This document shows, one piece after another, positions 21,850-35,448 of a DNA stretch of 43,017 nucleotides (positions are counted from its first letter, which is position 1; every line of letters begins with the position of its first letter). Below the pieces are notes generated by a model that did not search any database, was not told the origin of the DNA, and saw nothing but the letters and a program-made list of their open reading frames with translations. This DNA comes from Enterobacteria phage phiJLA23: the sequence record NC_047740.1; one strand, given 5' to 3'. Position numbers and translations under genes: made by a program.

Positions 21850-22035
21850 TCAAACGAGGGATACTTTATCAACGCTGACTTTGTGGACTGTCAGGTCAAT
21901 CTTAAATGCTGCCTTTGCGGCTGCAACTGCTTCTTCAGGGCTTTTAGCAATGAACCTACCTTCGTAGGATTGCTGGCAAGATTTGCATTGCCGACCCATT
22001 AGGCGGGAAGTTAAACGGACTTCGTAGTTATTCAC
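21850..22035 (-). CDS. Hypothetical protein (61 aa, CxxC)
   Basis: ORF between tRNA and terminase terminator; weak RBS. Confidence 0.4.
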   Translation of the reverse strand: MNNYEVRLTSRLMGRQCKSCQQSYEGRFIAKSPEEAVAAAKAAFKIDLTVHKVSVDKVSLV

Positions 22036-22402: not shown

Positions 22403-22597
22403 TCAGTCATAAAATACCTCAAAGTAACCAAACTCAATGTCAATGCCATCTTTAACCATCTCTATACACCCATCTTCTGACTCACATTTAACCCAACCAT
22501 ATGCGGGTGATGACAAAATGCTGTAAGATTTACCAGTTTTGAACTTCTTATCATTGTAAGACACAATACATCTGACTTTCCCTAGTGATTTAGTCAT
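22403..22597 (-). CDS. Hypothetical protein
   Basis: RBS gggag 7 nt before ATG 22597; overlaps upstream gene end by 8 nt. Confidence 0.5.
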   Translation of the reverse strand: MTKSLGKVRCIVSYNDKKFKTGKSYSILSSPAYGWVKCESEDGCIEMVKDGIDIEFGYFEVFYD

Positions 22598-22829
22598 AAA
22601 TCTGCTCCCCATCTTCACGCTTACCTACGCGACCAGCAAGATAGCCTGCAACCCAAACAAACTTCATCTTCTCGATGATTGTACTGACTGGGCTATGAAA
22701 CTCACAGATAATCGCCTTCATGATGTCATTATCCTGCTTCTGCTTGCTTGTCAGCTTATCCACCGCCTCGTTAAGTTTCTTAGCTTGGGCGCGAACTGCA
22801 TTAAATTGTGGTTGAGTAAGTCCGAACAT
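22590..22829 (-). CDS. Hypothetical protein (79 aa)
   Basis: ORF in early small-gene cluster. Confidence 0.5.
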   Translation of the reverse strand: MFGLTQPQFNAVRAQAKKLNEAVDKLTSKQKQDNDIMKAIICEFHSPVSTIIEKMKFVWVAGYLAGRVGKREDGEQIYD

Positions 22830-22831
22830 GA

Positions 22832-22966
22832 TTAAGCCTTCTTGTAAGATTGAATATCGCCACCCAGGACTGCCTGCTGTGCCTTTGCCGCTTCATAGCT
22901 GTCATACACTCGTTTGTGCATTACGCTATTGAACTTGCCAGTGTAGTACGTGTGAATCCATATCAT
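22832..22966 (-). CDS. Hypothetical small protein (44 aa)
   Basis: ATG 22966 and stop 22832 fill the gap between flanking genes with tight coupling; below ORF-track size cut-off. Confidence 0.3.
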   Translation of the reverse strand: MIWIHTYYTGKFNSVMHKRVYDSYEAAKAQQAVLGGDIQSYKKA

Positions 22967-22969
22967 GGG

Positions 22970-23263
22970 TTATTCTCCAGCGATGTAAAATTCAGCGTCG
23001 AGATAAAATGCAGGCTGAAACAATTCTCTCTCATCGTCATATTCATCATATCCAGTATATACGTAACCATTCCTAACCTGTTCCGCTTGAAGCTCACCAT
23101 CACATACCCACAAGCAAACGAAGCTACCAATTTTAATTGCCTCATCAATAGATATGCGCCTCATTGTTTGTTTCTTACTCCACATATGAATTGCTCGCTT
23201 GCCGTCTCCACCCTCAGAATCGTTGGCTGCCAATAAGTTGCCAGTGAATACGTTAATTTTCAT
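22970..23263 (-). CDS. Hypothetical acidic protein (97 aa)
   Basis: RBS ggaga; start overlaps upstream small ORF stop (ATGA). Confidence 0.5.
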   Translation of the reverse strand: MKINVFTGNLLAANDSEGGDGKRAIHMWSKKQTMRRISIDEAIKIGSFVCLWVCDGELQAEQVRNGYVYTGYDEYDDERELFQPAFYLDAEFYIAGE

Positions 23264-23265
23264 TT

Positions 23266-23388
23266 CTTCTCCTCACGTTCGCGCCACATGTTCATCAACT
23301 CAAAGTACGCCATTACTTCATCCCCATCTTTAGCCTCATCCATCATTTTTTTACACCATTCACTTGGCAACTCATCATATCCACACAT
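23266..23388 (-). CDS. Hypothetical small protein (40 aa)
   Basis: First ORF after composite promoter 23396-23466; RBS gaggaaag. Confidence 0.4.
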
Positions 23389-23395
23389 TTAATCT

Positions 23396-23466
23396 TTCCT
23401 CGTCTAATTTCGATAAAGTAATGGTAACGCATCCTTGCGATGGATGTTTAGCAATTTGTGCTATTT
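23396..23466 (-). promoter_or_regulatory. Composite early promoter (palindrome 23449-23463, hairpin, -10-like box, leader ATCGAAATTAGAC)
   Basis: Same ordered module as 268-332. Confidence 0.45.
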
Positions 23467-23700
23467 ACTGAAATAAATATCACGNTNCTCACCACGCTNC
23501 TTTCGAAGTTCATAAGCCTTATTAAGCGACTCAATAGCTTCATCAAGGTCTGTTAANANGTCCTTGTGCCCACGCANNCCNCNNANGCGNGNNAACNCAN
23601 CNCGCTCAACAATAAGTACCATACCCTCATCAGCAAGGCATTCGGTGTCGAATCCGTGATTTTCGTGAAAGTAAACTGCCTCATCAACTTCAATTATGCN
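23467..23700 (-). CDS. Probable gene obscured by N-run (hypothetical protein)
   Basis: Long open frame on minus strand through 23485-23700; stop codon lies inside the palindrome copy; start unresolved. Confidence 0.25.
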
Positions 23701-23841
23701 GTTTTAAAAAAATTCAAGCTCATATCTCAATCCTCGTTATTGTGCCGCCATGCGTCTTCTGCATTAACATGGCGTATCTCTCGTCTACGTAATGCAGGAG
23801 CATATCGATACCCCTGCTGCTGAATTTGTGTTCGTAGATTG

Positions 23842-24075
23842 TCACTTGTATTGGCTAGCCAGTTGGCAGCCTGATAGTGCCGTGCAAATCTGCTCGTACT
23901 CAAGCCAGGCCAAGTCCTCTTCCCACGGCAGTATATCTTCAAACTCCTGATTTCGAATCTGATTTACAACCTCTGTAAGCGATTCTGACGCGCTAAACAT
24001 CTTGCGGCTAAGGCAATGCATTAGTATAGCCCTAATCTCGGCAGCATGCTCTTCTGAAAGGTTAATGGTAATCAT
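23842..24075 (-). CDS. Hypothetical acidic protein (77 aa)
   Basis: ORF with helical acidic composition in early cluster. Confidence 0.5.
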   Translation of the reverse strand: MITINLSEEHAAEIRAILMHCLSRKMFSASESLTEVVNQIRNQEFEDILPWEEDLAWLEYEQICTALSGCQLASQYK

Positions 24076-24369: not shown

Positions 24370-24432
24370 TTGTTGTTGATAGGGTAATCATAGCTGACTA
24401 CCCAATTTATTGTTTAGCAATTTGTGCTATAT
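24370..24432 (-). promoter_or_regulatory. Composite early promoter (palindrome 24415-24429, TATGATTAC, leader TATCAACAACAAA)
   Basis: Palindrome also encodes the last residues and stop of the upstream gene. Confidence 0.45.
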
Positions 24433-24974
24433 TCACCATTCGGGAGAGCTTTCGCTTTCCGGTAGAACTGTATGGCCTTCTCCACCTCATCGGCATTATA
24501 GCCATGGATTGTTGTTTGCGGTGGCACGTAGTTTGAGCGTGGCACGTCGGATCGGCACTGACTGCACCAGTTTTGCACGTCGTCCTTATCCATCTCAACC
24601 AGGGCCGGATGAACATAAATCTTATCGCCAATGAGGCAAACAATTCCCGCCTCTTGTAGTTCTGGGATGATGTTATTTGTCAGGTCATGCATAATCCCTT
24701 CGCGCCCGACGAATGGCTGGACATTTCGTATTGCCTCGTATAGAGATCGAATGCCAACCACTCCATTCCAGCCATGGCGGCTAATCCTGCTAACTACGAC
24801 ACCGTATTTGTAGCTCAACTTGACGCACAGCATCTCTTCGGCGCTGGGCCAGAAATTGAATGATTGGCGGTATCCATTAGTACTGATTGCCACACGAAGT
24901 GGCGGCAGGTTATCTTGCCTGGCGACTTCCATCACCTGGTCATCAGTTAACTTATCCTCGTTGAAATCAAACAT
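24414..24974 (-). CDS. Hypothetical protein; truncated paralog of the P-loop ATPase 26758-28341 (shares its N- and C-terminal segments, lacks the ATPase core)
   Basis: N-terminus MFDFNEDKLTDDQVMEVARQDNLPPLRVAISTNGYRQS and segment VVGIRSLYEA...CLIGDKIYVHP align with both ends of the 527-aa protein; strong RBS aaggag. Confidence 0.6.
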   Translation of the reverse strand: MFDFNEDKLTDDQVMEVARQDNLPPLRVAISTNGYRQSFNFWPSAEEMLCVKLSYKYGVVVSRISRHGWNGVVGIRSLYEAIRNVQPFVGREGIMHDLTNNIIPELQEAGIVCLIGDKIYVHPALVEMDKDDVQNWCSQCRSDVPRSNYVPPQTTIHGYNADEVEKAIQFYRKAKALPNGEYSTNC

Positions 24975-25237
24975 TATTTAGTCTCCTTAATCATTTCCTG
25001 ATATGCGTTAATCATAGCTACCGCACCCTTCAGTTCATCTCCACTCATTCCTGCTACGCTGGGGAAAGCTTAAGTAGCCTAGCTTTAAACTCGCTTACCG
25101 CTTTCTCCCTTATTGGACTGTTTGTCTTAGCTCGNGGTTNCNTNNNNACNACGCNGAANTNCATNCAGAAGANNATTTTCTGTGCTGCGATGGACTTGGC
25201 TGCGTCGAATGTTTACCATTTATTTGAGGATTGAGAT

Positions 25238-25477
25238 ATGAAAATTCGCTGCACCAATTGCATTACAAGTACCGACAAGAAAATACTAACACCATTCGTA
25301 AAAGGCTCTTTATACGACGCTGAGCGTCTAATCATTAACGGCAAGGCAATCCCGAACGAATGGGTTATTAATGGCGCTGAGCGACCACACAAGCACGATT
25401 CTGGATGGATTGCCATTACAGGCTGGAAGGTTGGAGTGTTTATTCCTGGTATTGCAACTTTTGATGAGGTTAAGTAA
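25238..25477 (+). CDS. Hypothetical protein (79 aa)
   Basis: RBS gagga 7 nt before ATG; first plus-strand gene after divergent intergenic region 24975-25237. Confidence 0.55.
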   Translation: MKIRCTNCITSTDKKILTPFVKGSLYDAERLIINGKAIPNEWVINGAERPHKHDSGWIAITGWKVGVFIPGIATFDEVK

Positions 25478-25630
25478 ATGCTAAAGCCATCTGACTTGAA
25501 CTATTACGATCTAGAAACCATAGCCAAGTACAGCGGTAAGGGTTGGCCTGTTGGTGACTACTTCAAAGAAGATTTGATTGAGAGCTTCAACATCGTCCAG
25601 AAGGCAATTGCAAAAGCAGCAAAGAAATAG
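25478..25630 (+). CDS. Hypothetical small protein (50 aa)
   Basis: ATG overlaps upstream stop (TAAATG); stop TAG lies in palindrome copy 25628-25642. Confidence 0.35.
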   Translation: MLKPSDLNYYDLETIAKYSGKGWPVGDYFKEDLIESFNIVQKAIAKAAKK

Positions 25631-25688
25631 CACGAATTGCTAAAGCCCTTCGGGGCTTTTATTGTATATTCATCTCATCGAAACGAAA
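25626..25688 (+). promoter_or_regulatory. Composite early promoter (palindrome 25628-25642, terminator hairpin gcccttcggggc + T-run, TATATT, leader CATCGAAACGAAA)
   Basis: Palindrome centre about 42 bp upstream of predicted start. Confidence 0.5.
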
Positions 25689-25702
25689 AAAACAAAAGGA
25701 AA

Positions 25703-26062
25703 ATGATTATGATTAACATGATCACTAAAAANGGCATCANCTCAGATAACAATCTGTTTAAAGCTCGCGTTAAAGATGGTATTGAGCAAATCAAGATTCA
25801 TGGTAAATGGCAAAATCTCACTGAGCGGGGGCGTTACATCAAGACTAAGACTCTTTATGTCACATTTGTTAACCATAAATCAGGAGTATCAAAGTCATTC
25901 AAGCAAGGTCGTCGCTATCAGGTAGAAATGACCGCATCTCTTGGACAGAACGCTGGTAAAATATTTGATGAAGATGGTGACTCATGGACGCTGATTCGCT
26001 CTGAAGATGTTGGATTTACAACTGTTTGCGGAACTTATAAATTCGAGAGCCAATACAAATGA
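25703..26062 (+). CDS. Hypothetical protein (119 aa)
   Basis: ATG 25703 after RBS aaagga (ORF track starts at a non-ATG codon, 25637, inside the palindrome). Confidence 0.55.
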   Translation: MIMINMITKXGIXSDNNLFKARVKDGIEQIKIHGKWQNLTERGRYIKTKTLYVTFVNHKSGVSKSFKQGRRYQVEMTASLGQNAGKIFDEDGDSWTLIRSEDVGFTTVCGTYKFESQYK

Positions 26063-26253
26063 ATGAGACAGTAAGAATTTACATAACAAAAGATTCAATT
26101 TATTGCAAGTCTATACAACACGGCACTAAGTACAGATACTGCAAAGATAGAGGCTATTTTTGCGTGGTTGATTTCATTACTAGAAAATGGTTGCTTGAAA
26201 CTTTCATAGATAAAATGCCTAGTAATAAGCTATCATCTGGCGAAAGGTTTTAA
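26059..26253 (+). CDS. Hypothetical Cys-containing protein (64 aa)
   Basis: ATGA overlap with upstream gene. Confidence 0.5.
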   Translation: MNETVRIYITKDSIYCKSIQHGTKYRYCKDRGYFCVVDFITRKWLLETFIDKMPSNKLSSGERF

Positions 26254-26255
26254 TT

Positions 26256-26312
26256 AATAGCACTTTTTGCTAATGACACTACCCGCTTCGGCGGGTATAT
26301 TTGTTTCCATCA
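26256..26312 (+). promoter_or_regulatory. Composite early promoter (palindrome 26258-26272, hairpin acccgcttcggcgggt, TATATT, leader CCATCAAGAAGACAAAC)
   Basis: Same module; starts 2 nt after upstream stop. Confidence 0.45.
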
Positions 26313-26338
26313 AGAAGACAAACACTAAGGTGAACAAA

Positions 26339-26455
26339 ATGAAAAACATCTCTAAAGCAGTTGATGCGGTAATGGAACAAGTAATTAAGTTTGGTTTCTT
26401 TGGCTTCATGGGCGCAATCGCTGTTGTAGTTGGCAAATGTCTGGTTGGTCTTTAA
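26339..26455 (+). CDS. Small hydrophobic membrane peptide (38 aa)
   Basis: RBS aaggtg before ATG 26339; C-terminal FGFFGFMGAIAVVVGKCLVGL. Confidence 0.4.
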   Translation: MKNISKAVDAVMEQVIKFGFFGFMGAIAVVVGKCLVGL

Positions 26456-26517
26456 TGGCACTTTTTGCTAAAGACCTTAACAACAAAAATTGATATATTC
26501 TCTTCATCGAAACGAAA
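26454..26517 (+). promoter_or_regulatory. Composite early promoter (variant palindrome TGGCA-N5-TGCTA 26456-26470, TATATT 26494-26499, leader CATCGAAACGAAA 26505-26517)
   Basis: Same module, left arm one mismatch. Confidence 0.45.
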
Positions 26518-26537
26518 TACATTAAAAGGGCTAAAAA

Positions 26538-26717
26538 ATGGATATCATGACTACTATCGAAAACATCAAACCTGGCATGATGGTAAAAATGGGGCCACTG
26601 TTCCGCAAAGTACTTCACGTTGACCTTAAGGAGAATATCATCACCGTAATGATTAGAGGTCGCGCAAAGCTGTATCTTCCTCATAAAGGTCAGATGATTG
26701 AAGTTCGTATCAAGTAA
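26538..26717 (+). CDS. Hypothetical small protein (59 aa)
   Basis: RBS aaaaggg before ATG 26538; terminator-like hairpin gccccttcgggggc 26724-26737 follows. Confidence 0.45.
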   Translation: MDIMTTIENIKPGMMVKMGPLFRKVLHVDLKENIITVMIRGRAKLYLPHKGQMIEVRIK

Positions 26718-26757
26718 ATAATCAAGCCCCTTCGGGGGCATTTAGAGAGAGATGATA

Positions 26758-28341
26758 ATGTTTGATTTTAATGATGACAAATTGACTGTTGAACAAGTAA
26801 TGGCTGTTGCCGCTCAGGATGGATTACCTCCTTTACGTGTTGCTATTAATGCGAACGGTTATCGCCAGAGCGCATCATTCTGGAAAGCTCCGGTTGAGAT
26901 TGATTCTACTGGCGACAAGTATCCTGTTATCTCGCTTGGTAACGACTATGATGTAGTTGGCAAACTATCAAGCAACATTGCTCGTTCTGTTCAGTTTCCT
27001 GAATCATCTGCTTATATGCACTTCCTTGGTTGCATCTCGGCAGCTATGTTAGGTCGCTTTACGGTTGAGTATCACGGAACTCAACAACCAACATCACTGT
27101 ATGTAGTGACCAGCCAGCCTCCATCAACTGGTAAATCCGCCATTAACTCGCTGTCTCTGGCTCCAATGATTGCAGAGACTGAGCGACTAAACGATCTGCG
27201 TAAGCGTGACCGTAAAAAGATTATGGCCAAGCTGTCGGCTCTGGCTAAAGAAATGAAGCAGGAGAAGTCGCCTTCTGAGATGGCTGGTTTGTTTGAGGAG
27301 AAGGAGGAGCTGGAAGATAAGCTCGAGAAACTTTGCGACATCGTATTCCCTGTATCTGATACTACTCCTGAAGGTCTGGCACGCATTAACCATCGTCAGG
27401 GTAGCTTCGCTGTCATCTCGGATGAGGCGACGAGCGTCAACTCACTGCTTGGCATGACCTATGGTGATGGAACAAAGAAAACAAACAGCGAACTGGTACT
27501 TAAGGCCTGGGATGCTGGTAACGTATCTATCGCGCGTGCGAACGCAGAGAACAACATGAGCTTTATTGCTATGGGGTGTATTTCTGTAATTGCGCAGGAT
27601 GAAACAATAGTCGCAATCATGAATGCTGGTGCTCGCGGTATTGGTGTATCCGAACGTTTCTTGCTTGTGCGTGAAAAGTCATTCCTTGGTGAGCGTGTTT
27701 TCGTCGATGATAATGGCGAGTCAACATATGAGCCGATTGACGGAGCGTTGAAGGCTGATTACTTCCGTCTTGTTCATGAAATTATGAGTGAGCAAGATGT
27801 GAAGTTGACTATTAGTAACTCAGCAATGAAGCACCTTAACCGTGCTCGACAGGAAATGGAGCCACACCTTGCGGATGGCGGCAAGTATTCACACACAATG
27901 CTCCGTGGCGCACTAGGTAAAATGGATAAGCAGGTTATTCGCCTTGCTGCCGTTCTTCACACCATACGTAACTGGTTTAATCCAAATGGCGGTAGTCCGC
28001 AGAAGTCCAGGGAGATTGGACTGGAAACGATGCAGGAGGCTTTATTGATGTTTGAAGAACTTAGCAAGACTTACTTATCTTCTGCTAACGCAGCTGGTCA
28101 TGCTGGCGATAACGCTGAGATGAACAAGTTAATTGATATCCTTATCAAGCAAGGCAAGAACAGTAAAGGAGTTGTGGGTTTGCGCTCACTTTATGAAGCT
28201 GCGCGTAAGGTTCGACCTTTCGAGTCACAGGCTGGTGTTATGGCTAAAATTAAAGACCACTTACTCCCGATGCTTGATGATAAAAACTATACCTGCCTGA
28301 TTGGTGACAAGGTATATATCAATCCACGGCTGCTGGGGTAA
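26758..28341 (+). CDS. Replication-associated P-loop ATPase (putative initiator or helicase-loader type)
   Basis: Walker A SQPPSTGKSA and Walker B-like FAVISDEATS; N- and C-termini homologous to the 186-aa protein at 24414-24974; start at second ATG (MFDFNDDK) by paralog alignment. Confidence 0.65.
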   Translation: MFDFNDDKLTVEQVMAVAAQDGLPPLRVAINANGYRQSASFWKAPVEIDSTGDKYPVISLGNDYDVVGKLSSNIARSVQFPESSAYMHFLGCISAAMLGRFTVEYHGTQQPTSLYVVTSQPPSTGKSAINSLSLAPMIAETERLNDLRKRDRKKIMAKLSALAKEMKQEKSPSEMAGLFEEKEELEDKLEKLCDIVFPVSDTTPEGLARINHRQGSFAVISDEATSVNSLLGMTYGDGTKKTNSELVLKAWDAGNVSIARANAENNMSFIAMGCISVIAQDETIVAIMNAGARGIGVSERFLLVREKSFLGERVFVDDNGESTYEPIDGALKADYFRLVHEIMSEQDVKLTISNSAMKHLNRARQEMEPHLADGGKYSHTMLRGALGKMDKQVIRLAAVLHTIRNWFNPNGGSPQKSREIGLETMQEALLMFEELSKTYLSSANAAGHAGDNAEMNKLIDILIKQGKNSKGVVGLRSLYEAARKVRPFESQAGVMAKIKDHLLPMLDDKNYTCLIGDKVYINPRLLG

Positions 28342-28345
28342 TTAA

Positions 28346-28681
28346 ATGTTCATCCTTGATGTGTTCAAGTTCTGCGAGAGCTACGAAAAGTTTAACAGGC
28401 AGCACCTGGCGGTATTCATTTACCGCCACAAAGAATGTGAAAGAATGGCTAAGGCAGCTGGAGTTAATGCGCGTTACTTTGCATCATCTGCGTCAAAGGA
28501 GTTTCTGGCAAGATGCATGACTGAAGGTTACATCGATGGAGTTAATGGCAGTTACTGGAGCAAAGGAAGCACGAAGCGACCATTCGGTTTTAGCTTTAGG
28601 TGCCTCGGAGGTGAGAGTGATAAGTACACCAATGAGATGATGACCATAAAAGAAATGACAGACGACCAACTGTTCGCGTAA
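28346..28681 (+). CDS. Hypothetical protein (111 aa)
   Basis: ORF 5 nt after ATPase stop; ends at bidirectional terminator. Confidence 0.5.
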   Translation: MFILDVFKFCESYEKFNRQHLAVFIYRHKECERMAKAAGVNARYFASSASKEFLARCMTEGYIDGVNGSYWSKGSTKRPFGFSFRCLGGESDKYTNEMMTIKEMTDDQLFA

Positions 28682-29884: not shown

Positions 29885-30064
29885 TATAAGTTAGTCTGCG
29901 ATAATGAATTCCACCAATTCTCCATCAATCGGGGTGAAGATCCAAGTCATGTCATCTCCATAAATCTTGTAATTACCATCCCCCTGGTACTCACCACTGT
30001 AAGGGTTGTTTACAGTGAAAGGCAGTGATTTTGATTTGTTGCTAACGCAGAATAATTTAGTCAT
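29885..30064 (-). CDS. Hypothetical small protein (59 aa)
   Basis: ORF filling the gap between 30077 and the terminator; below ORF-track cut-off. Confidence 0.35.
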
Positions 30065-30451: not shown

Positions 30452-30520
30452 TTTGTATCCTCTCGTTTTGTTTTGATGGAGTAAATATACCCCCTCTTTT
30501 NATTTGTNTTTTANTTNGTG
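30452..30520 (-). promoter_or_regulatory. Composite early promoter (TATATTTAC, leader CATCAAAACAAAAC; palindrome degraded by Ns)
   Basis: Module order conserved; upstream half-site region contains Ns. Confidence 0.35.
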
Positions 30521-30843
30521 CTAGTTCNTGTNTNCNTTNTNNNTNNNNTTTCTAGCGTATTCATCATCTCCTCAAGCTTCTCTGCATCAATAGAGGACTT
30601 AACCCATTGCAACTTCACATTGCCATCATTATCAACAAGGCTAGATACACCTTTAACCATGTAGCCCTGAGGAATTAGGTTACTCACATCGCGACCGTGA
30701 CCATCCCCAGCCTTAGCCAACTTGCTGCGACGCAGCTCTACGTTACGAATATTCATACCGTACTTCTCTGCGATTGCCTTGTTAGTCATACCGTTAGCCA
30801 GTTCTTGCTTTAACTCTTCGTTGGTGATTTTAGCTATAGACAT
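30511..30843 (-). CDS. Putative HTH DNA-binding protein (3' end uncertain, runs into N-run)
   Basis: N-terminal helix-turn-helix-like segment TNKAIAEKYGMNIRNVELRRSKL; ORF passes through Ns 30490-30550. Confidence 0.45.
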   Translation of the reverse strand: MSIAKITNEELKQELANGMTNKAIAEKYGMNIRNVELRRSKLAKAGDGHGRDVSNLIPQGYMVKGVSSLVDNDGNVKLQWVKSSIDAEKLEEMMNTLEXXXXXXTXTSXX

Positions 30844-30931
30844 TATTTAATTTCCTGTTAGCAGATTATGAAGTACATGATTATAAAGGTTAATGGCATA
30901 GCCATCAACGGTAGTAATGTTTTCATCTGAA

Positions 30932-31000
30932 TCGTCTCTCGTTTCGATGAACACACTATACGCCATCCATGGCGATGTGTTTTAACAAAAAGTGCTATTT
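30932..31000 (-). promoter_or_regulatory. Composite early promoter (variant palindrome TAACA-N5-TGCTA 30983-30997, hairpin cgccatccatggcg, TATAGTGTG, leader CATCGAAACGAGAGACG)
   Basis: Same module; about 100-nt leader before the HTH gene. Confidence 0.45.
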
Positions 31001-31252: not shown

Positions 31253-31488
31253 TTCTTCGCACCTTTCTTAAATATCTTCTTACCTTCCTCACGATACATT
31301 GCGAGGCTAGGCGTTGCTGGAACTCTTACATACTTGCGTGGCCGCTGGTTCATATAACTAAACTTCCCATTGAAAACTACAGATATGTCATCAATATCAA
31401 AGTATTTACCTATCATCTTGATGTCATCCTGCAATCCCGCCTCTCCACAATGCGCCCATACAGCGGCGCGTCCGGTTTCAACTATCAT
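31249..31488 (-). CDS. Hypothetical protein (79 aa)
   Basis: ATG 31488 overlaps upstream small ORF stop (ATGA); ORF track starts at 31533. Confidence 0.45.
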   Translation of the reverse strand: MIVETGRAAVWAHCGEAGLQDDIKMIGKYFDIDDISVVFNGKFSYMNQRPRKYVRVPATPSLAMYREEGKKIFKKGAKK

Positions 31489-31610
31489 AGGCCGTAAGCC
31501 ATTTTTAAAGCTTCTCGAGCGCAAATCCAGCAATATTCAGATCCAGTCTTAACTGCGTCATTTGCGAAAGACTGCGCAATCTCGAACATCTCTTTGTCTA
31601 TAATTTTCAT
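31485..31610 (-). CDS. Hypothetical small protein (41 aa, CxxC)
   Basis: First ORF after composite promoter 31612-31686; RBS gaggg 7 nt before ATG 31610. Confidence 0.35.
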   Translation of the reverse strand: MKIIDKEMFEIAQSFANDAVKTGSEYCWICAREALKMAYGL

Positions 31611-31611
31611 C

Positions 31612-31686
31612 TCTTAACCCTCTCATTTGCTGATGTAATTAATATAATCCATCCTTGTATTTTAGTTTTAACAAAAAGTGCTATTT
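31612..31686 (-). promoter_or_regulatory. Composite early promoter (variant palindrome 31669-31683, TATATTAATTAC, leader CATCAGCAAATGAGAG)
   Basis: Same module; palindrome overlaps upstream stop. Confidence 0.4.
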
Positions 31687-32297
31687 ACTCATAAACAAGA
31701 AAACTTACATGCTTACCTTTCGCATCATTACACCCGTAGTACCCATCAAATTCATTATGTAACTTCCATGCAAATCCGTCATCGCTAACTATTTCAACCT
31801 GGTCATTAATCGGGTCAAGTTTGAATTCATACTCATTGAGCAGGGTGAATGAGCCGTTCGTCATTACGCAAGTCGCAGTAATCATGAAAAAATCCTCCGG
31901 GCAATCTTTCTTCATTTCTTCGATATCAGCAATCATTCGGTCNNNCCATGTTTCGATATCAGTGTTCAGATAACCCNCTTCTNAACTATTTAAACCNGTT
32001 CATTAATCGGGTCAAGTTTGAATTCATACTCATTGAGCAGGGTGAATGAGCCGTTCGTCATTACGCAAGTCGCAGTAATCATGAAAAATCCTCCGGGCAA
32101 TCTTTCTTCATTTCTTCGATATCAGCAATCATTCGGTCGCGCCATGTTTCGATATCAGTGTTCAGATAATCCTCTTCGAAACTATAATCAAGACACCAAG
32201 CTAAATCCCAAACATCATTTTTATATCCAGCTTTACTCAACTCCTGCGCCACCATTGCCTGAAAGAGTTCCCATTGCTTATCAAAGGTTAATTTCAT
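31685..32297 (-). CDS. Hypothetical acidic protein (about 155 aa in the true genome; interrupted by an artifactual ~198-bp tandem duplication)
   Basis: ORFs 32079-32297 and 31685-31936 share ...RMIADIEEMKKDCPEDF; copies differ by homopolymer length and Ns at the junction. Confidence 0.45.
31786..32181. repeat. Tandem ~198-bp duplication with N-rich junction (probable assembly artifact)
   Basis: Unit 31786-31983 repeats at 31984-32181; Ns at 31943-31997; A6 versus A5 run between copies. Confidence 0.7.
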
Positions 32298-34974: not shown

Positions 34975-35448
34975 ATGGATTCAATTGACAAGCGTACTCT
35001 TAATGGTAACAACGGAACAATTCGCACAGAAGACAAGAAGCCGCGTAAGCGTCCATCAGGTTACTATGTACTAAAGGATGAAGTGAGAGCGGGATTAAGG
35101 GCGCGCCTTGAGATTGTATTGGACTTCTACGGCAGCAAGGCCAATCTAGCTAAGCAGCTAAAGGTTACGCGCCAGGCTGTAGAAGAATGGTGTAAGCGGG
35201 GAATGATTTCAGCTCGCGGCGCACAGCTTGCGCATAATCGATATAAGCGAACTGGCGAGGGGTTCAGGGCTACATTCTGCCGACCTGATTTACAGTTCGA
35301 CGGTAACGGCAAGCCTCTAACACTGCGATGCAAGAAGCGTCAGATGCTTCGAGTTGTTACAGAAGCTGAGTTAGCAACCAAGCCGCAGCGTAAATCATGG
35401 CGAAAGGTTAAGAAAGAAAGAGAAGAAGCACGAAAAGCTAAAGAGTAA
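34975..35448 (+). CDS. Putative HTH transcriptional regulator (Cro/YdaS-like)
   Basis: HTH-like segment SKANLAKQLKVTRQAVEEWCKRG; basic C-terminus; RBS gaggtgag; terminator 35454-35485 follows. Confidence 0.6.
   Translation: MDSIDKRTLNGNNGTIRTEDKKPRKRPSGYYVLKDEVRAGLRARLEIVLDFYGSKANLAKQLKVTRQAVEEWCKRGMISARGAQLAHNRYKRTGEGFRATFCRPDLQFDGNGKPLTLRCKKRQMLRVVTEAELATKPQRKSWRKVKKEREEARKAKE

Follow-up and report, generated by a model that had tools for sequence, protein, structure and literature searches.

The sequence analyzed here is the record of Enterobacteria phage phiJLA23 (NC_047740.1), and the window is this whole stretch of 43,017 nucleotides (nt). A sequence-only reading had proposed seven small genes in it, here called A to G, each below 60 amino acids (aa). 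The list of open reading frames (ORFs) and their translations showed that every one of the seven is present in the window. Gene A (26339-26455, plus strand) encodes 38 aa (MKNISKAVDAVMEQVIKFGFFGFMGAIAVVVGKCLVGL), and gene B (26538-26717, plus strand) encodes 59 aa. Gene C (23260-23388, minus strand, 42 aa) leads a leftward operon, and its stop codon shares a 4-nt overlap with the ATG of the gene that follows. Gene G (22832-22966, minus strand, 44 aa) belongs to the operon of C and lies 3 nt behind an upstream 97-aa gene. Gene D (31485-31610, minus strand, 41 aa) also leads a leftward operon. The ATG of gene E (25478-25630, plus strand, 50 aa) immediately follows the TAA of an upstream 79-aa gene, and gene F (29891-30064, minus strand, 57 aa), a member of Pfam family DUF7244, lies 12 nt behind an upstream 62-aa gene. 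The coordinates first proposed were exact for A, B, D, E and G, and the 3'-ends of C and F were 6 nt off. Gene C had been ended at 23266, short of its stop codon, and its true size is 42 rather than 40 aa; gene F had been run past its stop codon to 29885, and its true size is 57 rather than 59 aa.

Megablast of positions 25200-28400 showed 99.3-99.4% identity to phages C119 and phiKP26 with the whole query covered, and the next matches were JK06, AHS24, Rogue1 and e4/1c at 93-97%. On this sequence similarity, the window is classified as a Rogunavirus of the Rogunavirinae, Drexlerviridae, that is, a T1-like siphovirus and coliphage. The seven ORFs sit in the non-structural arms of this T1-like genome.

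A total of 149 ORFs of at least 25 aa were found within 11 kb of the window. ORFs of 38-59 codons are common by chance, so the reality of the seven genes must rest on other evidence. The long ORFs of the window were used to train a log-likelihood codon score, and 121 ATG-started ORFs of 35-65 aa served as the reference set. The score was positive in the claimed frame alone for all seven genes, which ranked between the 92nd and 99th percentile of the reference ORFs. Substitutions relative to related phages were counted by the Nei-Gojobori method, as proportions of synonymous (pS) and non-synonymous (pN) differences. Gene B compared with its Webervirus homologues gave a pS of 0.81 and a pN of 0.37, with 20/21/42 differences at the first, second and third codon positions. 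For gene C the values were 0.24-0.29 and 0.009 against JK06, AHS24 and e4/1c, and a further homologue in AugustePiccard is 60% identical. Gene D gave 0.59 and 0.075 against AugustePiccard, gene F 0.58 and 0.055 against Opt-79, and gene G 0.43-0.81 and 0.03-0.20 against several relatives. Gene E differed from Opt-79 by 10 synonymous changes and 1 non-synonymous change, and from BECP10 by 5 and 0; its AugustePiccard homologue is 66% identical. Third-position changes were in excess in B to G against diverged relatives, and these substitution patterns indicate that B to G are under purifying selection. The conservation in relatives that had been named as a check thus speaks for these six genes, and A is invariant along with its flanks. 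We conclude that all seven frames are real genes for small proteins; the evidence is good for six of them and moderate for A.

The strength of the Shine-Dalgarno (SD) sequence was ranked by anti-SD pairing against all ATGs of the window. Genes C, D, E and G fell within the top 7-10% (C has the SD GAGGA, -5.9 kcal/mol), and A and B within the top 16%. The SD of F is weak to ordinary, at a rank of 37%. Tight coupling, the other feature that had been put forward, was found behind the upstream stop codons of E (0-nt gap), G (3 nt) and F (12 nt), and these three genes would be translated through coupling to the upstream gene. Points against the reading of all seven ORFs as genes include the weak SD of F and the literature, in which no transcription or translation data for these genes were found.

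The view that these genes had been missed by annotation did not survive comparison with public records. Local tblastn onto the annotated coding sequences (CDS) of C119 placed A within gp51 and matched B, C, D, E, F and G to gp50, gp65, gp37, gp54, gp44 and gp67, respectively. The C119 products are 100% identical in protein sequence to the window genes, and the gene order and context are alike. The AHS24 counterparts of A to G are gp59, 58, 75, 44, 63, 52 and 77. All seven genes are annotated in C119, phiKP26 and AHS24, which are near-identical to the window, and the only difference from these records is the start of A (38 aa here, 60 or 41 aa publicly). All seven also have significant full-length matches to PHROG profiles (E 1e-16 to 1e-38), namely phrog_11986, 8121, 1312, 2180, 4548, 4788 and 3955 for A to G, all of unknown function. 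Gene F matches Pfam DUF7244 with 100 bits (cut-off 27) over residues 1-57 of 57; apart from this family, Pfam gave no significant match for the seven, and NCBIfam gave no match for the small proteins. Small genes are the norm in this region: the C119 stretch has 41 CDS, of which 11 are no longer than 60 aa. The seven genes are thus already known as hypothetical proteins, which is unsurprising for a T1-like phage.

Gene G also matches parts of longer PHROG families. The AHS24 record notes that G corresponds to the N-terminus of a Rogue1 fusion protein. At 22590-22966 (minus strand), the window and AHS24 have G and the next gene, of 79 aa, as two genes; by the notes in the AHS24 record, the pair is annotated as one 'putative fusion protein' in Rogue1. 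This pair is a gene fusion or fission polymorphism.

Genes A, B, C and D each stand as the first gene downstream of a copy of a repeated module. Its 5'-part is a box (TAGCACnnnTTGCTAA), of which the window holds 14 copies at no more than 2 mismatches, compared with 1.6 +/- 1.4 expected; none of 100 shuffled sequences reached 14. Box positions are 271, 7150, 13949, 23448, 24414, 25628, 26258, 26456, 30982, 31668, 32550, 34946 and 40426. The same geometry was seen in 11 of the 13 copies examined: a -10-like hexamer of the form TAnnnT (TATAGT, TATATT, TATGAT or TACCAT) at +37/38, the sequence ATCGA(AACGAAA) at +49-51, and a gene ATG at +71-84. In all 11 full-geometry copies, the box thus points at a gene whose start lies 71-84 nt further downstream. 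The module is intergenic and about 62 nt long, with a palindromic box (TAGCA-N5-TGCTA), in many cases a hairpin, and a conserved start region (ATCGAAACGAAA) at about +50.

The module of A (26258-26321, plus strand) contains the box TAGCACTTTTTGCTAA at 26258-26273, TATATT at 26296-26301 and the leader CATCAAGAAGACAAA. A GC-rich hairpin with a T-rich tail, which scores as terminator-like, lies at 26280-26297. This copy also reads ATGACA-17-TATATT (10/12), the sole canonical-looking sigma-70 match among the four modules. In the module of B (26456-26518, plus strand), the box TGGCACTTTTTGCTAA at 26456-26471 is followed by TGaTATATT at 26491-26499, an extended -10 form, and by CATCGAAACGAAA at 26505-26517. 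The module of C (23401-23463, minus strand) has its box at 23448-23463, TACCAT at +37 and ATCGAAA at +49, and the module of D (31621-31683, minus strand) has its box at 31668-31683 and TATATT at +37.

Loci of four Drexlerviridae lineages (Rogunavirinae, Braunvirinae, Tempevirinae and Webervirus) contain exact copies of the module. In other genera, the module still stands in front of the B homologues of Roth93, KLPN1 and KL (all Webervirus) and of the D homologues of AugustePiccard and Hafnia phage Pocis76. The literature searched held no description of the module, and searches on Drexlerviridae promoters or transcription starts and on Rogunavirus small proteins returned nothing relevant; one study gives generic promoter prediction only (Niu et al. 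2014, PMC4070988).

Generic sigma-70 consensus matches were not enriched in the window (27 found, 24.3 expected). What speaks for a promoter is thus the repetition of the motif and not a canonical -35/-10 pair. With the hexamer taken as the -10 element, the box palindrome is centred near -42, and a dimeric factor may therefore read the box. The phage encodes a Cro/YdaS-like helix-turn-helix (HTH) protein at 34975-35448 (plus strand), which scored 24 bits, under the Pfam cut-off. In a speculative reading, the module may be a class-II-type promoter controlled by an activator or repressor, with the box possibly read by this Cro-like regulator. It most likely acts as a promoter for the host RNA polymerase, possibly controlled by a box-binding factor. 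The composite promoter that had been claimed upstream of these genes is accordingly retained for A, B, C and D in a changed form: it is well supported as a conserved module and predicted as a promoter, and most copies have no canonical -35/-10 arrangement.

Some features of the module count against a promoter. The TTGCTA of the box stands 22-23 nt from the -10-like hexamer, too distant for a -35 element, and a canonical -35 at 16-18 nt from the -10 is wanting in most copies. Together with the unenriched generic matches, this non-canonical spacing would suit a module with another task, either to terminate or process RNA between genes or to serve purely as an operator or other protein-binding site. 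The copies at 25628 and 26258 hold terminator-like GC-rich hairpins with a T-rich tail between box and -10, and TAGCA-N5-TGCTA is the type of palindrome bound by dimeric regulators such as the Cro-like protein might be. In the AHS24 record, a promoter and a terminator that overlap are marked at the site of A's copy. However, the hairpin is missing from several copies (26456, 24429 and 271 among them), the orientation always agrees with the downstream gene, and the fixed-offset TAnnnT, conserved start region, SD and ATG form the anatomy of a promoter plus leader. We therefore regard a non-promoter role as unlikely. It is possible that terminator, promoter and operator are combined in one module.

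Gene A encodes a peptide with a polar N-terminal half followed by a transmembrane (TM)-like C-terminal segment (residues 18-38). The Kyte-Doolittle means of 19-residue windows starting at residues 13-20 were 1.6-2.1, and the hydrophobic stretch of about 19-21 residues is of the length of a single pass. The record of AHS24 gp59, the counterpart of A, notes one TM domain by both Phobius and TMHMM. The peptide is predicted to be a tail-anchored single-pass inner-membrane peptide. A comparison with Pfam YqzM (E 0.016) fell short of the cut-off.

Without sequence variation, the case for A rests on its SD, codon usage and position. Its SD is AAGGTG (-4.7 kcal/mol), whereas no SD precedes either of the alternative starts, ATG 26273 and GTG 26330. 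In frame, the codon score reached 17.7 bits, which places A at the 99th percentile, and the five remaining frames all scored below zero. Per codon, the score of A was the best of the seven genes. The ATG lies at +81 from the box start, within the range of +71-84 spanned by the gene starts of other copies, and the stop codon adjoins the next promoter-like module, that of B.

Several observations stand against A as a gene. It has no nucleotide difference in six relatives and hence no informative divergence. The public records disagree on its start, with a product of 60 aa in C119 and BECP10 and of 41 aa in AHS24; in JK06 the sense strand carries no CDS at this site, and JK_51 lies on the opposite strand. 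To these can be added that the 41-aa version, searched against 5.8 billion proteins, found a single cluster, which is A itself annotated as 60 aa. The lack of variation is uninformative because the surrounding block as a whole, 26256-26513, hardly varies either: BECP10 departs from the window at one position and e4/1c at two. These points would fit a stretch that is never translated, whether as a spacer or as transcript, and that lies between the two promoter modules with an ORF that is fortuitous: the non-coding flanks are as free of differences as the ORF, the product is an orphan, and 38-codon ORFs are frequent by chance. The position of the ATG, the SD found at this start only, the codon score confined to one frame, the coherent amphipathic-plus-TM composition and the stop codon abutting the next module all speak against a fortuitous ORF. 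Reading A as a non-coding RNA was also dropped, since Rfam gave no match in 25000-27000 and the RNA folds no better than shuffled sequences (z +0.87). We consider an untranslated A a minority possibility that deserves some weight, and a real gene starting at 26339 probable.

A longer A of 60 aa from ATG 26273 (or 62 aa from TTG 26267) is annotated in C119 gp51 and BECP10_00008, and the phrog_11986 profile is 60 positions long. However, ATG 26273 lies upstream of the -10, in the part of the module taken up by the box and hairpin, and it has no SD (+1.3 kcal/mol, 95th percentile). The longer form is thus very unlikely, and 26339 is the start that we prefer.

Homologues of gene B were found in 175 phage records, of which 157 are below 60% identity, mostly from Klebsiella (Webervirus) phages. 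The homologues listed are about 44-47% identical and span all 59 residues. A scan of IMG/VR with B returned three loci only, all copies of known phages, and the profile of the B family against 1.84 billion representatives returned four proteins only, of the same narrow family.

The original JK06 record places a different gene here, the antisense 111-aa ORF JK_51 (26406-26741, minus strand). This ORF is open in the window as well as annotated in JK06. Its frame is interrupted by stops in 4 of 5 divergent B homologues, whereas the sense frame is open in 5 of 5. The 20/21/42 differences from Webervirus peak at the sense third position, which is the antisense first position, and the antisense codon score is negative. 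JK_51 was rejected on these stops and this substitution pattern, and that it is the true gene at the site of B is extremely improbable.

The structure model of B is an all-beta SH3/KOW-like barrel with a predicted local distance difference test score (pLDDT) of 93. It shows the six-strand KOW-like barrel seen in domain I of elongation factor P (EF-P) and in the N-domain of eIF5A, to which it is closest. Lys31 is nearly invariant and stands at the tip of the beta3-beta4 hairpin; it is missing in the remotest relative, P0021. As a fold, the SH3-like barrel is very common. Compared with EF-P domain I and eIF5A, B has a 4-residue turn (LKEN) in place of the PGKG loop and is without OB domains II and III. 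A functional reading of the model is weakened by the searches of known structures: Foldseek against the PDB gave no significant match (best E 0.17), and B showed no similarity to the sequences of solved structures. Functional proposals from the model would hold at the level of the fold only. At that level, B may be a free-standing SH3/KOW-like beta-barrel that acts by binding to a macromolecule of the host; this could be nucleic acid or part of the apparatus for translation or transcription. A bolder proposal is that B mimics EF-P domain I or the eIF5A N-domain through Lys31 and that the module is a regulator-controlled class-II-type promoter with the Cro-like protein. This combination is a long shot. 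If it were true, Lys31 would make B a competitor of EF-P, either on the ribosome or on the enzyme that modifies EF-P, and host translation would be retuned as a result.

The sequence-only reading had suggested that such small early proteins are often host-takeover or anti-defence factors. Neither early timing nor such a role found support for any of the seven genes in the present results. The lone public label in this sense is that of the B homologue in Klebsiella phage Roth93 (XNP00724.1), named 'anti-RM protein stp1', which would make B a Stp-type anti-restriction protein. The T4 Stp query was verified against T4-like genomes, and hhalign of the B family against it gave a probability of 0.07%. 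The Stp motif NFHNEHVM (SNYHNEHVMRWH) lies in the next gene and not in B. We therefore rejected B as a Stp protein, an identity that is highly improbable, and the anti-defence role as it had been stated is unsupported for B.

A 35-aa Stp-like ORF (MSKKNPYSTSNYHNEHVMRWHWQKLKERYLARQGK) was found directly downstream of the B homologue in Roth93, KLPN1 and KshKPC-M, at 1511-1618 of locus L003 (Roth93), 2015-2119 of L010 (KLPN1) and 1371-1475 of L014. It shares 53% identity with T4 Stp over 19 aa (pairwise E 6e-8). It is annotated as 'hypothetical' in Roth93 and is unannotated in KLPN1, and none was found in the window. Because the Stp motif sits in this neighbouring ORF and B is dissimilar to Stp, the 'anti-RM stp1' label has most likely been displaced by one gene and would belong to the 35-aa neighbour. 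The label is not explained in the KlebPhaCol paper, and a search of the Stp1 literature found nothing relevant.

The neighbourhood of A and B varies among relatives. In AugustePiccard and Opt-79, a distance of 75-77 nt separates a gp52-like gene from the helicase gene, and A, B and a 64-aa ORF are absent. In BECP10, A is kept and other genes replace B, with the junction at about 26514-26552. In Webervirus, B and its module lie near the left end of the genome, beside the Stp-like gene. In the window, A and B have the module copies at 26258 and 26456 (promoter activity being predicted) and the hairpins at 26280-26297 and 26726-26739. The second, GC-rich hairpin (GCCCCTTCGGGGGC) lies between B and the helicase gene (26752-28341), and it is a weak terminator at best because its plus-strand T-run is poor. 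From this pattern of presence and absence, A and B can be taken as units of promoter module plus gene that assort independently in a moron-like manner. They would be separate moron-like cassettes that have entered the space between the helicase gene and a conserved neighbour. An accessory, host-directed role of A and B is compatible with this distribution.

Taken together, the joint reading that all seven are genuine genes, with A to D driven by the module, E to G coupled to upstream genes, and A and B as moron-like cassettes, is probably correct. All seven would be accessory host-modifying proteins, none of them structural or involved in replication.

Gene D was found in 113 phage records, with identities from 100% down to 51%. 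It matches phrog_2180 (E 1e-20) and, weakly, the Kil-labelled phrog_2055 (E 2.5e-5). A single-sequence AlphaFold2 (AF2) model of D is a two-helix hairpin (pLDDT 94.6) with helices at residues 6-22 and 25-38. The Kil protein of phage lambda is a 47-aa inhibitor of FtsZ, and proteins of its family prevent the FtsZ ring from assembling and make cells filamentous. Lambda Kil and D are of similar size and match phrog_2055 over the same profile region (E 2e-6 for Kil, 2.5e-5 for D), but the families of lambda Kil itself are phrog_3924 and phrog_2461. Direct comparison of D with lambda Kil gave nothing by BLASTP and a probability of 1.6% by hhalign. Membership in the lambda Kil family was rejected on these results, and the resemblance was kept as a weak lead. 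By analogy, the two-helix hairpin of D may act on a host protein as small phage inhibitors such as Kil do.

Further small ORFs, all absent from the earlier list, were noted in the window. A 41-aa ORF with a GTG start (23720-23845, minus strand) is C119 gp62, and a 49-aa ORF (21850-21999, minus strand) is C119 gp70. The 39-aa ORF at 30847-30966 (minus strand) is AHS24 gp47, and its ATG lies inside the promoter-like module at 30997. A 22-aa hydrophobic ORF (30858-30926, minus strand; MKTLLPLMAMPLTFIIMYFIIC) begins where this module predicts a gene start.

The window also differs from C119 in its continuity. Missing from it are about 167 nt and 1.3 kb (gp57, gp56 and part of gp58), 307 nt by which the paralogous gp53/gp52 pair is collapsed into one 141-aa ORF, and 1.4 kb with an HNH endonuclease and part of an exonuclease gene; in addition, it has a tandem duplication of roughly 197 nt. 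The irregular sites are 23576-23594, 25139-25166, 25694-25709, 30513-30559 and 31787-32185. The window contains 230 N in total, with clusters at 23485-23602, 25135-25174, 25732-25740, 30501-30548 and 31943-31997, and each junction relative to C119 falls on a cluster of scattered N. The junctions look like an artefact of assembly or consensus and not biology. A repeat was noted within the window as well. The N-terminus of the 529-aa helicase (MFDFNDDKLTVEQVMAVAAQDGLPPLRVAINANGYRQS; 26755-26867, plus strand) is repeated at the N-terminus of a 186-aa protein (MFDFNEDKLTDDQVMEVARQDNLPPLRVAISTNGYRQS; 24414-24974, minus strand), with about 69% DNA identity, and C-terminal motifs are common to both.

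As a discovery these genes have small weight, being already in public annotations and in PHROG families. The practical gain lies in the corrected coordinates of C and F, the best-supported start of A (for which public records offer three versions), the probable reassignment of the stp1 label and a confident predicted fold for B. A description of the module across the Drexlerviridae could help in mapping transcripts and planning reporter experiments in T1-like phages. As mobile accessory cassettes, A and B would be reasonable candidates for host-takeover and anti-defence screens.

Two known systems resemble these cassettes and their products. Gene A is like phage single-pass membrane peptides and type I toxins (Hok, TisB, Ldr) in its 38 aa, its one hydrophobic helix and its small-xxx-small motifs. 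It differs from the Hok/TisB/Ldr class in having no sequence relation to any family and no evident antisense RNA. Morons are promoter-gene-terminator cassettes of lambdoid phages. Genes A and B are like them in having promoter-like modules of their own and flanking hairpins, and in being present or absent between conserved neighbours. Unlike the hosts of morons, however, this phage is a virulent T1-like phage and not a prophage, and the module is a motif of the phage family itself rather than a foreign promoter.

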